From: Candidatus Harrisonbacteria bacterium
GTDB taxonomy: Bacteria; Patescibacteriota; Minisyncoccia; UBA6257; 02-FULL-45-10c
DNA length: 64,000 bases
Assembly (NCBI GenBank): GCA_016214655.1
Contig: JACROC010000005.1
Span: 131,078 to 195,077, forward strand
Reading direction: 5' to 3'
The notes under the pieces were generated by a model. That model ran no database searches and was not told the DNA's origin. It saw nothing but the letters and a program-made list of their open reading frames with translations. The number at the start of each line of letters is the position of its first letter. Position 1 is the stretch's first letter. Below, piece after piece: positions 9,003 to 64,000 of this stretch. Position numbers and translations under genes: made by a program.

Positions 9003-10571
9003 TTATTCAGCCGAAACAGCAACCGTCTGTCCGTCTGTAAGTCCCTTGATTACCTCAACCAATTCTCCGTCAGATATTCCGGTTTCTATTTCGCTATCCA
9101 GTAAAACGCTTCCGGTACCCGCAGCTTTCTGTCCCGACGGCAACACTTTGACGAATTTTTTTCCTCCTTTTTCATAAACCGTCAAAGCTGGAATTTTAAT
9201 AACATCATTTTTAAAAGAAGTCATTATTTTAAGATCCGCACTCATGCCATTACGAACCGCTTCATCCGACTTCTCTAAATAAATAATAATCCGGTAATAT
9301 TTATCGCCTTCCTTGATAATTTCTTTCGGTTCAATAGAAAATACCTTGCCCTTAAAATCCTGCCCGGGAAACGCGTCAAACTGAACCGCAACATTATTGC
9401 CGTTAACTTCCCGGATTTTATATATATCCAACTCGGAAACATCGGCTTGAATTTTTTGACCCAAGGCATTCAAGGAAACTGCCGGCTGGCCCGGACGGAA
9501 AATTTCCCCCTCTTCCAGCCAGATCTTATTCAACATCCCCTGGGCCGGAGCAGATAATATTGATTTCCGCACTTTATCTCTTACTGAAGCAATCTGACTT
9601 TCTGCTTCTTTAATTCCAGCCTGAGCCGCGTCAAGATCTTCTTTTCGCGTACCAGATTTCTTAAAAATCAATTCATTCTCAGCGACCGATAAACTAGATT
9701 CGGCGCTCCGTAATTTTTCCTGCGCCGAAGAAAAATTGGTCAAAGCCGTATTGATATTGGCCCGAGCCGTAGATACATCTGATCGCCAGGAATCAATTGC
9801 AGTTTGGGTAAGATTAGCTCCGGGAGTAAGAGTGTTAATCGCGATTGCCGTAATATCCAAAAATTGTTTAGTTTGATTTAAATTCTTATTAGCCGTAAAA
9901 GCATAGTCACTTAAATTACTGCTTTTGTTAAGCAGAGACAGCGAAATATTCCAAGCAACCAGCATTGATTCAATTGCTACCCGCCCAGATTCCAAACTGG
10001 TTTTAAGCTGGCCATCCGATAATGAAAGGTTAACTTGCGGGTTAGAACTTCGCGGATTACTGAACCACTGATCGGTTTTACTTTTAATGGCATCGTCGGA
10101 TTTTGTATAAGCATCCTGAATTTTATCAATCAATCCCTGTTTGGCATCTTCTAATGCGATTTTAGCGCTGGAAACCTTTGCTTCCGAGATGTTTATCTCT
10201 TCCTGAGTTGCGCCCGATAAAAGCTTATTTAAATTCGCTTTTCTTTGATCCAAAACAGCTGATAATTTTTGTATTTCTATCTCCAAGTCGGTGGTTTCCA
10301 ATTTTACCAGCGGGGCACCCTTAGAAACGCTTTGTCCTTCCTTAACATAAATCTTTTCAATAATCCCGGAAAAGGGAAGCTCTAAGTTAAATTCTTTTTG
10401 TGACACGACTTCCCCCCTTACTCTCACCACTTCCTGAATACTTCCGCGTTCAACCGGGAATAACAAAAACGCCGGTTTTTCCTGCCGGAAATATTTCTGG
10501 TATACCCAAAAAGAGACAGTAGCCAACCCCGCAACTACAATTAAAATCAAATAATAAGATAGTTTTTTCAT
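9003..10571 (-). CDS. HlyD/MacA-family periplasmic adaptor with a long coiled-coil hairpin.
   Basis: N-terminal TM anchor, biotinyl-lipoyl-like and beta-barrel regions, and about 240 aa of coiled-coil. Confidence 0.75.
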   Translation of the reverse strand: MKKLSYYLILIVVAGLATVSFWVYQKYFRQEKPAFLLFPVERGSIQEVVRVRGEVVSQKEFNLELPFSGIIEKIYVKEGQSVSKGAPLVKLETTDLEIEIQKLSAVLDQRKANLNKLLSGATQEEINISEAKVSSAKIALEDAKQGLIDKIQDAYTKSDDAIKSKTDQWFSNPRSSNPQVNLSLSDGQLKTSLESGRVAIESMLVAWNISLSLLNKSSNLSDYAFTANKNLNQTKQFLDITAIAINTLTPGANLTQTAIDSWRSDVSTARANINTALTNFSSAQEKLRSAESSLSVAENELIFKKSGTRKEDLDAAQAGIKEAESQIASVRDKVRKSILSAPAQGMLNKIWLEEGEIFRPGQPAVSLNALGQKIQADVSELDIYKIREVNGNNVAVQFDAFPGQDFKGKVFSIEPKEIIKEGDKYYRIIIYLEKSDEAVRNGMSADLKIMTSFKNDVIKIPALTVYEKGGKKFVKVLPSGQKAAGTGSVLLDSEIETGISDGELVEVIKGLTDGQTVAVSAE

Positions 10572-38426: not shown

Positions 38427-39165
38427 TCACATTCACAGTCACCTCTTGACTGCCCGATTCAATACTCGGGGCCTTGGCTGCCGCAAAAGCGCCTCCGCGG
38501 CCAAATGTCTCATAAACAGGTATTGGGGGCGGATACCCGCCGGCAGACTCGGAAAAAGTCACTACCCGGCCTATCCGGACCCGATTTTGTTTTGCCATCT
38601 CTTTAGCTTTGATAGATGCTTTTTCAAAAGCTTCTTCCCTGGCTACTTTCAGATATTTATCCGGCTCATCAATATTAAAGTTCAGCGATCCAATCTGGTT
38701 AATACCCAATTCCGGCAAGGAGCCTAAAATTTTACCAATTTTAGAAAAATTGCGTATCTTCACCAAAACGGTTTGCGTTAAAGTATAGCCGCTGATAAAA
38801 GTTTTCTTCGCCTTTTCATCATATTCATAACGCGGAAACAAATTATATCCGACAGTCTTTACATCTTTATCCGCAACGCCTTGTTCTTTTATAAATTGAA
38901 TTGTGGTATTCATTGTTTTATTATTCTCATCCGCAATTTTCTCAGGATCTGCTCCCTCGCTTACTACCGAAAATGTAAAAGTTGTTACATCCGGAGAAAC
39001 CGTGGTTTTACCTTCCGCGCTGACTATTAAAGTCCGTGACGGATATAAAGATCCCTGATATTTATAAAGCGTTTTCAAAGAAGACAGCCCTAATAAAATT
39101 AATACTAATAAAGACGCGTTGACCAACCACCAAAACCAATTTTTTAATTTCTCTGGATTAAACAT
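38404..39165 (-). CDS. SIMPL/DUF541-domain secreted protein.
   Basis: N-terminal anchor and an alternating beta pattern resembling SIMPL-family proteins. Confidence 0.4.
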   Translation of the reverse strand: MFNPEKLKNWFWWLVNASLLVLILLGLSSLKTLYKYQGSLYPSRTLIVSAEGKTTVSPDVTTFTFSVVSEGADPEKIADENNKTMNTTIQFIKEQGVADKDVKTVGYNLFPRYEYDEKAKKTFISGYTLTQTVLVKIRNFSKIGKILGSLPELGINQIGSLNFNIDEPDKYLKVAREEAFEKASIKAKEMAKQNRVRIGRVVTFSESAGGYPPPIPVYETFGRGGAFAAAKAPSIESGSQEVTVNVSVTYEIR

Positions 39166-39877
39166 AAGAAATCATTTTTTTTACTTCTTCTTTTTTCAGA
39201 CTGGCGCCGCCGACAAGGGCGCCGTCCACCTCCTTATATTTTAAGTAGTCTCTTAGATTTCGGGAATCAACTGAACCGCCGTACAATATTTTAGGGTTTA
39301 GGGTATAGGGTTTAGCGTTCAGGATCTTTCTGATATATTTTATAGTTTCTAATGCTGATTCTGGGGTTTCGGGATTGCCAGTGCCGATTGCCCAAACAGG
39401 TTCATAAGCTACGATAAAAGGGTTTAGGGTATAGGGTCTAGGGTATAGAAAGAGGCCAATTTTTAATTGGCGCTCGATTACTGCTTCTTTTTTGCCAGCA
39501 TTTTTTTCTTCAATAGTTTCGCCAACGCAAAGAACCGGGATCAGTTTATTCTCGGCGGCGGCTTTCATTTTTTTAGCTACCATTTCATCTGTTTCATCAA
39601 ACTTATGCCGGCGCTCTGAATGGCCAATGATAACGTATTTCACCCTAACGCTTTTAAGTTCTTTTGCTGAAACTTCTCCGGTAAAAGCGCCTTTTTCTTC
39701 GTAAAAAAGATCTTGGGCTCCCAGCCGAGATTTTTTTAAAACTTTTCCTACTTCTTCCAAAAAAGGAAATGGCGGCGCCACTACGACATTTTTATAATCA
39801 CTGGCTTTTGCCAAAGAAAGCGCCTCTTTGAGAGTGGCTGGATTCATTTTCCAGTTTAAAATCAGCAGCTTTGTCAT
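39158..39877 (-). CDS. tpiA: Triosephosphate isomerase.
   Basis: VIIGHSERR and AYEPVWAIGTG signatures, plus YGGSV. Confidence 0.9.
   Translation of the reverse strand: MTKLLILNWKMNPATLKEALSLAKASDYKNVVVAPPFPFLEEVGKVLKKSRLGAQDLFYEEKGAFTGEVSAKELKSVRVKYVIIGHSERRHKFDETDEMVAKKMKAAAENKLIPVLCVGETIEEKNAGKKEAVIERQLKIGLFLYPRPYTLNPFIVAYEPVWAIGTGNPETPESALETIKYIRKILNAKPYTLNPKILYGGSVDSRNLRDYLKYKEVDGALVGGASLKKEEVKKMISYV
39291..39314. repeat. G-tract repeat copy 1 (TAGGGTTTAGGGTATAGGGTTTAG) inside tpiA. It contains the 18-nt core that encodes PYTLNP on the minus strand.
   Basis: The identical 18-mer also occurs at 39426-39443. Confidence 0.6.
39422..39451. repeat. G-tract repeat copy 2 (GGGTTTAGGGTATAGGGTCTAGGGTATAG) inside tpiA, a canonical G3-N4-G3-N4-G3-N4-G3 motif on the plus (template) strand.
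   Basis: Four GGG runs with 4-nt spacers. Shares AGGGTATAGGGT with the rpsD-rpoA intergenic repeat. Confidence 0.6.
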
Positions 39878-39926: not shown

Positions 39927-41001
39927 TTAATTTCGTAAAGAAAACCAAACCTCATTTAAAAGTCTCTCGCGTAACTCATAAGTGTTAGCATGAGACAAAG
40001 CGCCAAGATAAGATTGTAATGATTGTTCAAGTGTTATTTTAGTAATATATCCTAGGTTATATTCTTTGATGCGTTTCCGTATTTTTGTAAATATGCGATG
40101 TTTTGTCTTGATTCGTATCAACCGATACTTTGGAAATATCACATGGCCAAGAAAATCAATGCCTTGATGTAACTTACGAATTATGATTTTCTTTGGATGT
40201 AGCTCCAAAGCAAGTTTCGTCTCAAGAAACTCATTGATCTGCGGCAAAAATTTTTCTAAATAATCCTGATTTTTCGAAACAATAACAAAATCATCGGTAT
40301 AGCGAATATAGTATTTTACTTTTAACCTATGTTTCATAAACTGATCAAATTCGTTCATATAGATATTGGCGAAAAGCTGCGAAGTCAAATTCCCTATCGG
40401 AATACCTTGCGCGGCGATTCTACTCTCTCTCTCTCTCTCTCTCTCGGGCAAACGTCACGCTTTTATAACTTTCAATAATAGATTCCAGAAGCCAAATGGT
40501 GTCACTATCTTTGATACGCTTTTTGATGATGGAAAGCAGGGTTACGTGATCAACGCTGTCAAAAAACTTCCTAATATCGCATTTCAATATAAAGCAAGGA
40601 TTGGCGCCATTCTTACTGACCTTTCTCACTGCTCTTTCCAAAGCTTCCACGCCTCTATGAGTTCCGTAACCGATGCGACAGGAAAACGAGGTAGAAATAA
40701 AGGTCGATTCAAAAATCGGATTGATAATCGAGAAAATAGCATGGTGCAGAACACGATCCCGAACTACCGCTTTATGAATGTGCCGTTGTTTCGGATCCTG
40801 TATATAAAAACCGGTATATGGACCGTGTTGGTAAGTTTTATTTTTCAATTCTCGTTGAAGCTGAAAAATATTTTCCTCCAGATTCCATTCAAACCGAAGC
40901 GCATCAGATTTTTTCCGCTTATCGATTTTAAAAGCCTCCCAGGCTGAAAAAAGATTCTCCGATGAAATAATTTTTGTAAACAGATTTTTATAAATTTTCA
41001 T
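39927..41001 (-). CDS. DGR-type reverse transcriptase in two ORFs: 40420-41001 (RT motifs 1-3) and 39927-40451 (motifs 4-7). The break is a frameshift inside an (AG)11 tract. One extra AG unit, or two fewer, restores a single frame.
   Basis: YACRIGYGTH, LKCDIRKFFDSVDH, the GIPIGNLTSQ hallmark of DGR RTs, and YTDDFV (YxDD). The N-terminal ORF ends ...FARERERERE* and the second ORF begins (M)PERERERESRIAAQGIPIGNLTSQ. Confidence 0.85.
40423..40445. repeat. Perfect dinucleotide microsatellite (CT)11C on the plus strand, which is (AG)11 in the RT sense. It is the site of the RT frameshift.
   Basis: Read directly; this is the only long dinucleotide tract seen in the window. Confidence 0.9.
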
Positions 41002-41015
41002 AAATAATTACCACT

Positions 41016-41366
41016 ATGGATGACTTCGATATACCAATCTTTAAAAAATCATATGAGCTCTATAAGACCTTTTACGGATATCGGCTCATGGTCTCCAAAC
41101 AAGATCGCTATACCCTGTGGCAGCGCTGTGAAAATACTATTTTGGATCTCTTGGAAAACATCTTATTGGCCAGCCAATTATCCAAAGAAGCTAAATTGCC
41201 GGCATTGGAAAAATCCAGCCTGAAATTGAATCTCCTTCGGATTCTCCTCAGGCTTTCCAAAGAAACCAAGGCAATCGACAATAAAAAATATCTTTACTTG
41301 GAAGAAATAATAGATGAAATAGGCAGGATGCTCGGCGGCTGGATCAAATCCACCAAAGATCGCTAA
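41016..41366 (+). CDS. avd: Accessory variability determinant (Avd), a four-helix-bundle DGR component.
   Basis: C-terminal EEIIDEIGRMLGGWIKSTKDR closely parallels Bordetella phage bAvd (...AEVGRILGSWIARVNRK). Size is 116 aa. Confidence 0.8.
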   Translation: MDDFDIPIFKKSYELYKTFYGYRLMVSKQDRYTLWQRCENTILDLLENILLASQLSKEAKLPALEKSSLKLNLLRILLRLSKETKAIDNKKYLYLEEIIDEIGRMLGGWIKSTKDR

Positions 41367-41416
41367 ACAAAACGCTCTCCAATTATTGGAGAGCGTTTTT
41401 AGCGATGGGAGAAATG

Positions 41417-41535
41417 ACTTCCGAGAGGCACCGAGACCAATGTTGTTCCACCTGTTGTCATCCCAGTTGTTGTTGACGTTCAGGCCATTGCCGTCGAAGT
41501 TGCCCACATTGACGCGGTTGCCGTCCGACGTGACA
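41417..41535 (-). other. DGR template repeat (TR).
   Basis: 118-bp match to the 3' end of the target gene (41952-42070) with 22 mismatches, 21 of them at adenines of the TR sense strand. The TR sense translation is Asn-rich (NRVNVGNFDGNGLNVNNNWDDNRWNN). Confidence 0.85.
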
Positions 41536-41820
41536 AATTTGCTCGCCCCCGTCTTTGGCACTGAAAGTCGAGGTTTGCTGTCGCCTAAGGCGACTTATAT
41601 CCTCTTCTTTCTGAATTTTATTTAGGAGCACTCCGATGTTCATCGGAGACCTCCGCTAGAAGCAAGCAAGAAGTTCTGTTCTCCATCTTTATTCACACGC
41701 TATCGCACTCCGTAGAGATGCGACACTCTGGTGACGTCTCAAAGATGAGACATCTTGCGGGATTAAACCGTGGCCTAATCTACATTAGCAAGATATTTAT
41801 ATTGTAATAAATTTGTAGAA

Positions 41821-61423: not shown

Positions 61424-61762
61424 TTATTTTATTGTTAATCTTTTCATCCTTTTCGGCTTTAATGAATTCTTCGGCAGCATATGCCCTACCGCATCCCGCA
61501 AAACTTTGCCGGGATTCTTTTCAAATAATTCTTTAAGAGTCGCAGACTTAAGATGGCCCATATAACCGGTATGCCAATGATATTGCCTCGTTATGGGCTT
61601 ATTTCCGGAAAACGCCAATTCTTTGACATTCTCCACTACGACTTTATCCGCGCCAGCAAGACGAGGTTCGTAGTACGCGCTTTTCTTACCCTGCAAAATA
61701 CAAGCTATCTCTGAAGCCAACCGTCCTAGTCTTTTATTTTTAGCATCTAATCGATATTCCAT
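61424..61762 (-). CDS. rplM: 50S ribosomal protein L13. It is short at the N-terminus: the in-frame rplQ stop 8 codons upstream limits any extension.
   Basis: RLGRLASEIA..LQGK...HWHTGYMGHLK...LPKN L13 pattern. Confidence 0.85.
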   Translation of the reverse strand: MEYRLDAKNKRLGRLASEIACILQGKKSAYYEPRLAGADKVVVENVKELAFSGNKPITRQYHWHTGYMGHLKSATLKELFEKNPGKVLRDAVGHMLPKNSLKPKRMKRLTIK

Positions 61763-61786
61763 AAACCAGATAAGTCCGATAGGACC

Positions 61787-62122
61787 TTATTGAACAAACT
61801 CAATTACTGCTTGTTGCGCCGCATCTCGTTTACGGCGAAGCGCTGTTTTTAAAATCCGCAAATATCCACCGGCGCGATTCTGATATTTCGGAGCGATATC
61901 ATAATAAAGTTTGGTAGCCGATTTTTTAGGAAGCTTGGACAACAAACGCCGCAGACTGGCTAAATTCTGCTCTTTAGCAATAGTTACCAGCTTTTCCACT
62001 AATGGCCTAACCTCTTTAGCGCGAGCCTCGGTTGTCTGCATTTTTTCTTTCATTATTAAATTATGTACAAGGGTTTGAACAAATAATTTTCTTCGCCCCC
62101 GAATTCTGTGGAATTTTCTCAT
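61787..62122 (-). CDS. rplQ: 50S ribosomal protein L17.
   Basis: RAGGYLRILK...DAAQQAVIEFV C-terminal L17 signature. Confidence 0.8.
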   Translation of the reverse strand: MRKFHRIRGRRKLFVQTLVHNLIMKEKMQTTEARAKEVRPLVEKLVTIAKEQNLASLRRLLSKLPKKSATKLYYDIAPKYQNRAGGYLRILKTALRRKRDAAQQAVIEFVQ

Positions 62123-62896
62123 CTATTTTTTCTTTTTTGAAGTCTTCTTTTTCGCGATTTTCTTTTCTTTTTCTGCTTCAACTGGTTTCACTTCTAATTC
62201 CTTGACTTCGATATTGGAAATTTTTTCAAAATGATCCTTCAGGATATTACTGGCTTTATGCAGGGCCGCCGAAGGAGTGATACTGCCATCCGTGGTAATG
62301 GAAACAATCAAACGATTATAATCGGTCCGGTCTCCAACGCGCATGTTTCCTACCGAAAAATTAGCCTTTACTACCGGAGAAAAAGAGGCGTCCAAAGCGA
62401 TTGCGCCAATTGGCAACTTTTCAGATTTAGCCGATTCAACTGGAACAAAACCCAATCCCCGTTCAACTCGTAATTCCATTTCCAATTCAGATGACTTACT
62501 GGTTAAAGTAGCAACTTTGACATCCGGAGTGATCAAGTCTACTTCAGAATTTAATTCGATATCAGAAGCCGTAACAGCTTTCCCGCCTTTTACTTTAAGA
62601 GTCAAAGTCTGCGGCTCGTCAGTATGCAGGCGGAAACGGATCTTTTTCAAATTCAATCCCATTTCTACCATGTCCTCCATAACGCCACTCAAACTGGAAA
62701 ATTGATGCTGTACATTTTTAACTTTAAATTGAGTTATGGCTGCGCCGGGCAAAGACGAAAAAAGAACCCGCCTCAGAGCGTTTCCGACAGTCAAACCATA
62801 ACCAGTATAGAGACCCTCAATTTCAAAAACTCCCTCGGTATCCGTCTCCGAAACCTTTTTAATAGTTACCGACTCACTTAAATAAGCAAATTGCAT
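62123..62896 (-). CDS. rpoA: DNA-directed RNA polymerase alpha subunit with the N-terminal domain only. It has a Lys-rich tail and no alpha-CTD.
   Basis: GYGLTVGNALRRVLFSSLPGAAIT (alpha-NTD dimerisation motif). The protein ends at about 257 aa with KKIAKKKTSKKKK, compared with roughly 330 aa for typical bacterial alpha. Confidence 0.85.
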   Translation of the reverse strand: MQFAYLSESVTIKKVSETDTEGVFEIEGLYTGYGLTVGNALRRVLFSSLPGAAITQFKVKNVQHQFSSLSGVMEDMVEMGLNLKKIRFRLHTDEPQTLTLKVKGGKAVTASDIELNSEVDLITPDVKVATLTSKSSELEMELRVERGLGFVPVESAKSEKLPIGAIALDASFSPVVKANFSVGNMRVGDRTDYNRLIVSITTDGSITPSAALHKASNILKDHFEKISNIEVKELEVKPVEAEKEKKIAKKKTSKKKK

Positions 62897-62968
62897 TTTA
62901 GTTAGGGGTTAGGGGTTAGGGGTTAGGGGTTAGAAATTTACTAAACCCTCAACCCTATACCCTCGACC
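62891..62968. repeat. Telomere-like G-tract repeat with an inverted copy. (TTAGGGG)x4 sits at 62891-62920, and the C-rich counterpart (AAACCCTCAACCCTATACCCTCGACCCTCA) at 62937-62968. G-quadruplex motifs occur on both strands and the two halves can form a long imperfect hairpin.
   Basis: Read directly. It lies between the rpsD stop and the rpoA ATG; the G-run starts 2 nt after the ATG on the plus strand. Confidence 0.7.
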
Positions 62969-62982
62969 CTCAATTTATTAAT

Positions 62983-63594
62983 TTATTTAGAATAATAATC
63001 GACGACCATATTTACATCAAACAAAACCTCCATATCTTTAGGCAAGGAAACCACTTCGCCTTCAAATTTTTCCTTGTCCAATTTTAGCCAAATTGGCGCT
63101 TCGTATTTTTTTAATCGTTCTCCCAAATCTTTTAATTGCGCGATATCTTTAGATTGCGGTCGGATACCAATTTTATCTCTAACCCGCACCAAATAAGAAG
63201 GGATACCGACTTTTTTTCCGTTAACAACAATATGCCCGTGGCTGACCAATTGGCGCGCCAGAGATCTCGACGGAGCAAGGCCTAACCGAAAAACCGCATT
63301 ATCCAGTCTGCGCTCCAATAATTGAATGATCATCTGTCCGGTTACACCCGGATTCTTAACGGCAGTGACAAAAATCTTTTTCATCTGTGCTTCCCGGATG
63401 CCATAACTGTATTTAATTTTTTGCTTTTCCTGCAGCTGTTGGCCAAATTCCGAATAAGCATGCCGGTCTTTACCATGCAATCCAGGCCGATATGCTTTTT
63501 TGATCATTACACATTTTGGTGAATTACAACGATGCGCTTTCAAGAAAAGCTTAGTTCCCAATGACCGTTCTTTTTTTTCTCTGGTATCAAACAT
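62983..63594 (-). CDS. rpsD: 30S ribosomal protein S4.
   Basis: N-terminal Zn-ribbon-like CNSPKC and an S4 RNA-binding domain (GHIVVNGKKVGIPSYLV). Confidence 0.9.
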   Translation of the reverse strand: MFDTREKKERSLGTKLFLKAHRCNSPKCVMIKKAYRPGLHGKDRHAYSEFGQQLQEKQKIKYSYGIREAQMKKIFVTAVKNPGVTGQMIIQLLERRLDNAVFRLGLAPSRSLARQLVSHGHIVVNGKKVGIPSYLVRVRDKIGIRPQSKDIAQLKDLGERLKKYEAPIWLKLDKEKFEGEVVSLPKDMEVLFDVNMVVDYYSK

Positions 63595-63612
63595 GTTGAA
63601 AAAATTAATTTA

Positions 63613-64000
63613 CTAAACGCGCCGAACCTTTGGCGGCCTAGGTCCATTATGCGGGATAGGGGTCATGTCTTTGATTGATAATATGTTAAAACCTTGATTC
63701 GCGAAAGAGCGGATTGCAGAATCCCGTCCACTGCCAACGCCATTCACAAAAACGTCTAAATCCGCTAAACCGGTTTTCTTCAATTTTTCGGCAATTGCCG
63801 AAACCACCCTAGAAGCGGCAAAAGGAGTCGCCTTTTTCGGTCCGGAAAAACCAAGTGATCCGGCAGATGCCCAAGCCAAAGTATTACCCTGCTGATCGGT
63901 AACAGTAATGATAGTATTATTGTACGAAGCGCCGATATAAACATTACCGCGCATCAATTTCTTTGCACCGGAAACAACCCTGGCTGATGTCTTGGCGATA
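63613..64000 (-). CDS. rpsK: 30S ribosomal protein S11, partial. The 5' end lies beyond the right edge of the window; the track's TTG at 63957 is internal.
   Basis: In-frame upstream translation continues ...IAKTSARVVSGAKKLMRGNVYIGASYNNTIITVTD, matching the S11 N-terminus. C-terminal TPIPHNGPRPPKVRRV. Confidence 0.85.
   Translation of the reverse strand, partial: IAKTSARVVSGAKKLMRGNVYIGASYNNTIITVTDQQGNTLAWASAGSLGFSGPKKATPFAASRVVSAIAEKLKKTGLADLDVFVNGVGSGRDSAIRSFANQGFNILSIKDMTPIPHNGPRPPKVRRV

Follow-up and report, generated by a model that had tools for sequence, protein, structure and literature searches.

Convergent G-rich heptanucleotide arrays in the rpsD–rpoA spacer of a Harrisonbacteria genome and their relation to known prokaryotic heptamer repeats

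Introduction

In the intergenic DNA of prokaryotes, no other tandem repeat is as abundant as the heptamer (Mori et al. 2019, PMC6344855), whose function is an acknowledged question in the field (PMC6344855, PMC4692102). A G-rich class of such simple sequence repeats (SSRs) was described by Rehm et al. 2015 (PMC4692102), with units of the sequence GGGAATC (Xanthomonas) or GGGGA(C/T)T (Nostoc and Anabaena); the heptanucleotides of Calothrix PCC 7601 are cited in the same work. The present analysis concerns a pair of G-rich heptamer arrays in the spacer between rpsD (ribosomal protein S4) and rpoA (RNA polymerase alpha) of Candidatus Harrisonbacteria bacterium, found in a stretch of 64,000 nt (assembly GCA_016214655.1, contig JACROC010000005.1), which is called the window below and whose first letter is position 1.

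The repeats of Rehm et al. favour four units and sit in spacers that separate aligned open reading frames (ORFs), being G-rich on the coding strand up to 50 bp past a stop codon and on the non-coding strand up to 50 bp before a start codon, and 70–75 'convergent' inverted pairs were counted per Xanthomonas genome (PMC4692102). Most of the repeats are transcribed, their formation of G-quadruplexes (G4s) was observed in vitro by circular dichroism (CD), and 83% of those in Xanthomonas are common to two species (PMC4692102). No link to gene function, to insertion sequence (IS) elements or to transposons was reported, no regulatory effect was found, and the genomic regions around the repeats were more stable, not less (PMC4692102). 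Among the papers citing Rehm et al. 2015, no later work resolving the function was found, and a literature search by literal repeat sequence (GGGAATC, TTAGGGG and others) returned only noise.

Results

Head-to-head heptamer arrays between rpsD and rpoA

The rpsD–rpoA spacer measures 86 nt (62897–62982), and both flanking genes lie on the minus strand. As read from its sequence, the feature within it is a head-to-head pair of G-rich heptanucleotide SSRs, (TTAGGGG)4.7 on the plus strand and a degenerate (NNAGGGT)4.3 on the minus strand. Tandem Repeats Finder (TRF) placed the G array at 62901–62933 (period 7, 4.7 copies, 100% matches, score 66) and the C array at 62941–62973 (period 7, 4.3 copies, 78–87% matches). 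GGG/CCC triplets at period 7 were observed 9 times against 0.34 expected, and the 14-mer TTAGGGGTTAGGGG, with at most 2 mismatches, had 4 matches in the window against a shuffle mean of 0.55, a count reached by 0/100 shuffles. The plus-strand array also gave the top G4Hunter score of the window (2.56) and was its sole plus-strand site scoring 1.5 or more; the template (plus) strand has a strong G4 motif of four tetrads, and the mRNA has one of three. The census of the whole window came to 4 heptamer arrays at three loci.

The spacer is divided into 11 + 71 + 4 nt, the middle part being the insert (Table 1). On the plus strand, a single G at 62901 is followed by the (TTAGGGG)4 units at 62902–62929 and by TTAG at 62930–62933; in the mRNA this array becomes (CCCCUAA)4 and ends 4–5 nt before the rpoA AUG. 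The imperfect array begins 11 nt past the rpsD stop codon and consists in the mRNA of GAGGGUC, GAGGGUA, UAGGGUU and GAGGGUU followed by UAG, which gives a G3-N4 motif repeated four times on the coding strand. The whole spacer reads AUUAAUAAAUU-GAGGGUCGAGGGUAUAGGGUUGAGGGUUUAG-UAAAUUU-CUAACCCCUAACCCCUAACCCCUAACCCCUAAC-UAAA-AUG in the mRNA, with stop codons in all three frames, and is bounded on the plus strand by the reversed rpoA start codon (CAT, 62894–62896) and the reversed rpsD stop codon (TTA, 62983–62985). Since it is perfect and its partner degenerate, the plus-strand array is presumably young and the minus-strand array older.

A first-pass annotation, made from the letters of the window, had reported four TTAGGGG units at 62891–62920, a C-rich imperfect inverted copy 16 nt further on, and an rpoA start without a Shine–Dalgarno (SD) sequence. 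The four units exist but start at 62902, so that the position given was about 11 nt too far to the left; the gap of 16 nt (62930–62945, between the final GGGG and the first CCC) and the C-rich copy, the latter also recovered by TRF, were correct, and the mRNA-sense reading of the spacer agreed with the sequence. The placement between rpsD and rpoA was likewise borne out by Pfam for both genes, the insert ending 4 nt before the AUG. An SD is indeed absent at rpoA, though the relatives have none there either, and SD-like motifs were found up to 20 nt upstream of only about 7 of the 62 heuristic ORF starts in the window; for the latter reason the absence is a trait of the genome, which appears largely SD-independent, and not an effect of the repeat. 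The description of the genome as AT-rich holds only moderately, given a GC content of 39–47%.

Comparison with related genomes

The rpsD–rpoA junction was compared in 24 relatives with RpoA 60–90% identical. Their spacers had a median length of 21.5 nt (n = 24), and in 20 of the 24 they measured -1 to 40 nt, were composed of A/T only and had no SD; no SD was found at rpoA in any of the 24. A heptamer array was present in the spacer of none of the 24, including those with 86–90% identical RpoA. When 62901–62971 is cut out, ATTAATAAATT and TAAA are left, which make up a 15-nt A/T spacer as in the relatives L244 and L260. On the evidence of these junctions, the 71-nt element was shown to be a lineage-specific insertion or expansion in an otherwise 15–35-nt, A/U-only, SD-less spacer. 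In 55 loci of relatives (442,739 bp) there was 1 weak array (at least three G3 heptamers), against 4 in the 64-kb window. The locus thereby provides a natural with/without comparison in an essential and universally conserved operon, with the insert here and 24 relatives without it. Among the relatives, L266 has a spacer insert of two GC hairpins and L251 one that is a long A/T palindrome.

Heptamer arrays inside tpiA

The unit family of the spacer (AGGGTTTAGGGTATAGGGT) was found twice more within tpiA (39158–39877), where AGGGTATAGGGT matched at both sites. The G-rich units are on the antisense strand of this gene, and the sense strand reads CCCTATACCCTAAACCC, giving PYTLNP in both loops. The PYTLNP segments were ruled out as length insertions, as alignment to triosephosphate isomerases of the PDB and to relatives placed them in existing loops. 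A 7-nt SSR is kept here within an essential enzyme gene.

The tpiA arrays are patchily common to relatives, at one or both sites. The site at 39290–39323 is also occupied, with differing unit numbers, in L296, L297 and L298 (tpiA arrays at 10088–10104, at 10434–10464 with five units, and at 829–859, respectively), and the array at 39419–39448 is present or decayed in P0122, P0123, P0125 and P0143; in the tpiA DNA of L295–L298, unit numbers vary or units have decayed relative to the window. Because the arrays vary in this way among relatives, the heptamer family predates the Harrisonbacteria genome and changes as units are gained and lost; because the same family is found in the tpiA of relatives, the arrays are no assembly artefact.

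Predicted structure of the spacer element

The minimum free energy (MFE) structure of the mRNA was an imperfect hairpin with four GGG:CCC blocks, a UUAG:CUAA block and a 7-nt loop, at -29.7 kcal/mol, and it was unchanged when G-quadruplexes were allowed. An RNA G4 of the G3 arm alone reached -8.4 kcal/mol, and a G4 in the mRNA was rejected on these model energies. The 111-nt context (62885–62995, minus strand) folded at -30.7 kcal/mol (z = -2.9), with 0/200 shuffles as low. On the plus strand, the hairpin (-36.5 kcal/mol) was narrowly ahead of the isolated (TTAGGGG)4 four-tetrad G4 (-30.6 kcal/mol with RNA parameters). DNA hairpins were weak (-12.6 and -15.9 kcal/mol, with z = -1.2 and -2.5 reported in that order), and a cruciform or DNA hairpin was not favoured. 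Thus, of the long hairpin or competing quadruplexes proposed by the first-pass annotation, the hairpin-forming G/C pair and the G4 motifs on both strands were recovered, but in the energy model the mRNA quadruplex loses to the hairpin.

Opening of positions -20 to +20 around the rpoA start was predicted to cost 14.9 kcal/mol in the native sequence, against 7.4 kcal/mol after deletion of the insert in silico and 5.4–9.1 kcal/mol in six relatives, the insert adding about 7.5 kcal/mol. Opening of -4 to +20 was essentially unaffected, at 5.3 (native), 5.9 (deleted) and 5.0–7.8 kcal/mol (six relatives).

No promoter-like site was found at the element in a promoter/terminator scan, and an intrinsic terminator was ruled out, there being no terminator-like site at 62897–62982 on either strand and no U-tract after the hairpin, which is followed by CUAACUAAAAUG. 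Neither a tRNA nor any other Rfam family was found at gathering threshold over the whole 64-kb window, and at the locus (61500–64000, E cut-off 10) the sole overlapping match was noise (E = 9.8). With no match to an Rfam covariance model, known structured RNAs, including Alpha_RBS, were ruled out. In Escherichia coli, the S4 autoregulatory site lies at rpsM; such a site was ruled out here, as Alpha_RBS gave no match and the position is unlike that in E. coli.

Heptamer arrays across phyla

Species-representative genomes were scanned with AGGGTNNAGGGTATAGGGTNNAG, a search biased to one unit type, with gene calls made by ORF heuristics. All counts in this section hold among the matches listed. 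At least 119 stretches with AGGGTNNAGGGTATAGGGTNNAG were obtained from more than 15 phyla, and 18 loci belonged to the candidate phyla radiation (CPR). The matches came from Bacteroidota, Chloroflexota, Elusimicrobiota, Methylomirabilota, Planctomycetota, Omnitrophota, Gemmatimonadota, Syntrophales/Desulfobacterales, Cyanobacteria, Nitrospirae, Hydrogenedentota, Proteobacteria and others, and the cultured isolates Tychonema and Oscillochloris were among them. Units of the types GGGTATA, GGGTAGA and GGGTTTA were patchy over more than 15 phyla with 40–60% GC. The unit family was thus shown to be dispersed, occurring elsewhere in the Harrisonbacteria genome and, in the same architecture, in many phyla; the data are evidence that the heptamer SSR class, with a unit of the TAGGGTA type, extends to CPR/Patescibacteria as well as to numerous further phyla.

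Opposite-strand pairs at most 150 nt apart were ordered G-array then C-array in 38:0 cases (binomial p = 7e-12), an order that is unchanged by reverse complement. In an independent set of viral contigs (IMG/VR), with other units, the ratio was 17:2, and in the pooled close pairs G-then-C held for 55/57, regardless of the direction of the flanking genes. Classifiable pairs lay between co-oriented ORFs in 18 of 24 cases and usually abutted the ORFs. The mode of array length was four units (82 of 217 arrays). In single intergenic arrays the 5' end of the G-strand was the one closer to an ORF (43:17; median 15 vs 75 nt), irrespective of whether the end or the start of the ORF lay at that side (31 vs 29). 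Arrays within ORFs had a C-rich sense strand in 40:8 cases, a bias that arises because G-sense units carry TAG in all three frames.

The linkers of paired arms matched in 32% against 23% for random pairings (permutation p = 0.0035), and the duplex energy of the arms was -1.54 against -1.45 kcal/nt; at the rpsD–rpoA locus, 0 linkers match between the arms. Where several pairs came from one genome (Chloroflexi JACPQF; Planctomycetota L153, L189 and L200), they had only the heptamer arms in common, and their central sequences were unrelated. The polarity rule is sharpened by these data, being near-absolute (38:0 and 17:2), independent of gene orientation and accompanied by weak arm complementarity. 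Together with the recurrence of units in distant phyla, this polarity is not explained by simple slippage.

An inter-arm core, GCAGAAATAAGGAACTCCTTA, with the palindromic AAGGAAyTCCTT, was seen in Elusimicrobia (L182 1644–1713 and L187 351–433; also L186, L230 and L238), and may represent a lineage-specific composite element, unlike the unrelated loops of other phyla. Tandem G-rich heptamers were also common in viral contigs (L005–L124, IMG/VR; at least 120 stretches), with AGGGTTT, AGGGGTC, AGGGTGA, AGGGTTC, AGGGGCG and other units, some arrays being located at contig ends.

Relation to described repeat systems

The spacer element shares with the class of Rehm et al. a period of 7 with a G3–G4 tract, arms of 4.7 and 4.3 copies with four G-tracts and a G4 motif on each strand, an intergenic position between co-oriented ORFs less than 50 bp from both, and G-strands that converge as published. 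As in that class, length and sequence vary among close relatives and the C-rich sense strand is favoured within ORFs. Because every positional and architectural feature is matched, the insert is a member of this class; the architecture was shown to be of an already described kind, and what is new about it is the sequence of its units and its host. The latter has a small CPR genome with a GC content of about 41%, in contrast to the large genomes of Xanthomonas and cyanobacteria, and the spacer copy is found in no relative, whereas 83% are shared in Xanthomonas.

The TAACTGA heptamers of Beggiatoaceae, Cyanobacteria and Bacteroidetes (MacGregor 2015, PMC4679880) resemble the element in lying a few nt upstream of SD-less starts in ribosomal-protein operons, including a site before rpsD, and in their patchy distribution over phyla. 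They differ in being neither G-rich nor capable of G4 formation, in having been proposed as a protein-binding site for translational control, and in that inverted copies hardly ever occur (169 direct sets, but a single indirect repeat; PMC4679880).

The repetitive extragenic palindromic (REP) sequences of Enterobacteria and Pseudomonas, with the related BIME and REPIN elements, are imperfect palindromes in short operon spacers whose presence varies between relatives; they are transcribed, form hairpins and can stabilise upstream mRNA. REP sequences consist, however, of 20–40 nt of unique sequence, have a conserved head (GTAG) and owe their mobility to RAYT transposases, whereas the arms here are tandem heptamers without a conserved core. 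For a REP, REPIN or miniature inverted-repeat transposable element (MITE), the window offered 1 hairpin copy and no target-site duplication, and no RAYT is known here, the check for transposases having covered the ORFs examined.

Cyanobacterial STRR heptanucleotides, reportedly described by Mazel et al. in 1990, are tandem, dispersed over intergenic DNA and in part rich in C/G tracts (STRR1, CCCCAGT). The likeness lies in tandem heptanucleotide arrays in intergenic DNA; the units and the phylum are different, and STRRs are defined by specific sequences and used as fingerprinting targets. They are not known to follow a convergent-pair rule.

Eukaryotic telomeres also have short, G-rich, G4-capable tandem units, and a head-to-head fusion of the type (TTAGGG)n-(CCCTAA)n shows the same G-then-C order. 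The unit here is a noncanonical one of 7 nt in about 4 copies, located internally between essential bacterial genes, with no linear end or telomerase. A telomere repeat was ruled out, as the array measures 33 nt and has an internal position, with syntenic rpsD and rpoA on its two sides.

Discussion

The explanation that we favour, with some confidence, is that the insert is a slippage-prone hairpin of convergent heptamer SSRs that is tolerated in the operon and possibly modulates rpoA translation or mRNA stability to a mild degree. The arrays would grow and change by replication slippage, for which unit-number variation as seen in tpiA is expected. The insert would be co-transcribed in the alpha-operon mRNA and is predicted to fold into a GGG:CCC hairpin of about -30 kcal/mol without an RNA quadruplex. 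The base of this hairpin would lie 11 nt from the rpsD stop codon and 4 nt from the rpoA AUG, bringing stop and start to a distance as in the ancestral 15–35-nt spacer, and the AUG and the downstream codons are unpaired in the predicted fold. The insert may be tolerated in an essential operon because the hairpin base keeps stop and start close and leaves the AUG open. By the same model, the extra 7.5 kcal/mol or so for the full 30S footprint would damp independent rpoA initiation mildly, or at most moderately, and the hairpin could be a barrier to 3' exonucleases. The insert is most likely a near-neutral passenger rather than a dedicated conserved regulator. Taken alone, the locus is a modest curiosity: no special rpoA function was shown, and neither this kind of element nor the puzzles that it poses are new to the literature.

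Several points weigh against this explanation. Four relatives (L250, L251, L257 and L266) carry unrelated inserts of 71–127 nt in the same spacer. Structured inserts seem to land, or to be tolerated, repeatedly at this position, and a structured element at this place could be useful beyond being tolerated. The strict G-then-C polarity and the preference for four units are a hint of selection, or of some directed mechanism, beyond neutral slippage. As to class membership, the units TTAGGGG and (G/T)AGGGT(N) (AGGGTNN) deviate from the published consensus, and the dispersal typical of the class was counted within 64 kb only, at 3 loci (4 arrays). All statements on structure are thermodynamic model energies, and the G4 terms of ViennaRNA are approximate, disregarding K+ concentration and co-transcriptional kinetics.

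The first-pass annotation had suggested, among candidate roles, a structure by which alpha expression is controlled relative to that of S4. As a dedicated regulator at the post-transcriptional level, such an element, whether a selected intercistronic hairpin or a hairpin/G4 switch, would uncouple or throttle rpoA translation, or shield the rpsM-rpsK-rpsD mRNA from 3' exonucleases like the REP hairpins of E. coli. The predicted stability of a hairpin that ends 4 nt from the AUG, the doubled predicted cost of opening -20 to +20, and a largely SD-less genome, in which local structure should matter for initiation, are in its favour, as are the other structured inserts of four relatives and the preference of the class for sites between co-oriented genes, tight to ORFs (this survey; PMC4692102). 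We nevertheless regard it as unlikely. The element is absent from the spacer of all 24 relatives, even at 86–90% RpoA identity, so that such a role is unlikely to be ancestral or conserved; the complementarity of the arms is not kept, with 0 matching linkers here and 32% in the class against 23% at random; the published class has neither a link to gene function nor a regulatory effect (PMC4692102), and no Rfam family corresponds to the element. Because of the absence in relatives, the arms not kept complementary and the lack of functional association in the class, a tolerated passenger is more likely than a dedicated regulator.

Action at the level of DNA, in which the four-tetrad G4 of the template-strand (TTAGGGG)4 would block the path of transcription or replication or would be a hotspot of recombination or mutation, is decidedly unlikely. 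The strand of the array is the template and, by GC skew, also the leading-strand template, its G4Hunter score of 2.56 tops the window, and the isolated array G4 reaches -30.6 kcal/mol; the full-strand hairpin is still favoured at -36.5 kcal/mol, and the DNA hairpins are weak with no cruciform favoured. For similar repeats, CD showed G4 formation in vitro, yet increased stability was reported around the repeats (both PMC4692102). The preference of the class for exactly four G-tracts, and the weak complementarity of the arms, by which each array may matter alone, would also suit this possibility, but harm would be expected from a strong block within an operon that is essential and highly expressed.

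Transposition into the spacer of a small element that is mobile but not autonomous, similar to a MITE, REP or REPIN, is very improbable. Such an origin, also raised as a small mobile repeat in the first-pass annotation, would account for the presence here and absence in relatives and for the palindromic architecture, and it would agree with the survey matches at contig ends, where dispersed repeats would be expected, and with the common loop core in Elusimicrobia loci of different genomes. It is weakened by borders without a target-site duplication, by the occurrence of one hairpin copy in 64 kb, the other two copies being single arrays within a gene, and by genomes with several pairs (JACPQF, L153, L189, L200), in which the loops are unrelated and only the arms are common; for the published class, no association with IS elements or transposons was reported (PMC4692102).

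The chance that the element is artefactual, through chimeric assembly, contamination with eukaryotic telomeres or the misreading of an intrinsic terminator, is next to negligible. The resemblance to telomeric TTAGGG and TTTAGGG, and with it the label 'telomere-like', is superficial, the array having a period of 7 and being internal between two essential syntenic genes. The genes on both sides are the correct syntenic ones, their stop and start codons are intact, and parts of the ancestral A/T spacer are preserved as remnants. The arrays of at most 33 nt are shorter than reads, neither a U-tract nor a terminator-like site was found, relatives that were assembled independently share the family in tpiA with the window, and the class is also present in cultured isolates (Tychonema, Oscillochloris). 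The comparison of related spacers, from which a chimera might have been suspected, gave a repeat absent in 24/24 but recurring in the tpiA of the window, and because of this recurrence (AGGGTATAGGGT twice) a chimeric assembly was dismissed.

A very slim chance is given to the convergent arrays being the footprint of an unrecognised, strand-polar DNA process and not of slippage plus selection. Candidates for that process would be templated addition of G-heptamers to both 3' ends of a break that is then rejoined, or fold-back synthesis from a nascent G-strand. Such a process would explain the G-then-C order in 55/57 pairs among the matches listed, the differing units of the arms, the abutment to ORF ends and the patchy units in more than 15 phyla. 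If it were true, the rpsD–rpoA insert would record a recent event of that process, one that could be dated, in the minimal genome of a CPR bacterium.

Genomic context

Coordinates of the features are collected in Table 1. The genes of the locus, rpsK, rpsD, rpoA, rplQ, rplM and rpsI, are all on the minus strand.

Table 1. Coordinates and strands of the heptamer arrays, the spacer parts and the flanking genes in the window
Feature	Position	Strand	Description
Array in tpiA	39290..39323	+	C-rich on sense strand; encodes KPYTLNP before beta-strand 7; TRF
Array in tpiA	39419..39448	+	Encodes RPYTLNP before beta-strand 6; TRF
rpoA (RNA polymerase alpha)	62123..62896	-	Downstream cistron, 257 aa; Pfam RNA_pol_A_bac + RNA_pol_L
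Ancestral spacer remnant UAAA	62897..62900	-	Plus strand TTTA; between insert and rpoA AUG
Whole 71-nt insert	62901..62971	-	mRNA sense GAGGGUC...CCCCUAAC; predicted intercistronic hairpin; not in relatives
Perfect (TTAGGGG)4 + TTAG array	62902..62933	+	G-rich strand is the transcription template
Hairpin loop AAATTTA	62934..62940	.	Closed by TTAG/CTAA pairing in MFE structures
Imperfect C-rich inverted array	62941..62971	-	Plus strand CTAAACCCTCAACCCTATACCCTCGACCCTC; G-rich in mRNA
A/U-only ancestral spacer remnant	62972..62982	-	mRNA AUUAAUAAAUU, plus strand AATTTATTAAT; from comparison with relatives
rpsD (ribosomal protein S4)	62983..63594	-	Upstream cistron; Pfam Ribosomal_S4 + S4

The genome is that of an uncultured member of the CPR/Patescibacteria, with about 41% GC, and its ribosomal-operon spacers are short and composed of A/T only. 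GC skew of the plus strand was negative in every 2-kb bin (-0.06 to -0.23) and about 55 of the 62 ORFs are on the minus strand, which places the window on one replichore with genes co-oriented with replication. The RpoA of the window (257 aa), which shows 100% identity to a protein from a Candidatus Harrisonbacteria metagenome-assembled genome, has the N-terminal/dimerisation Pfam domains only and a Lys-rich tail; the best 120 homologues were all 241–289 aa long, and for this reason the C-terminal domain of alpha appears to be missing across this Harrisonbacteria/Parcubacteria lineage.

A cassette resembling a diversity-generating retroelement (DGR) adjoins tpiA (39927–41366). Its reverse transcriptase is split into two ORFs (40420–41001 and 39927–40451) by a frameshift in (CT)11.5 at 40423–40445 and is possibly phase-variable or a pseudogene. 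A bAvd-like gene (41016–41366; Pfam PF22296, 1.6e-15) lies next to the split reverse transcriptase in divergent orientation, and a nearby Asn-rich ORF (41178–41561), which had no Pfam match, might be related to a template or variable repeat.

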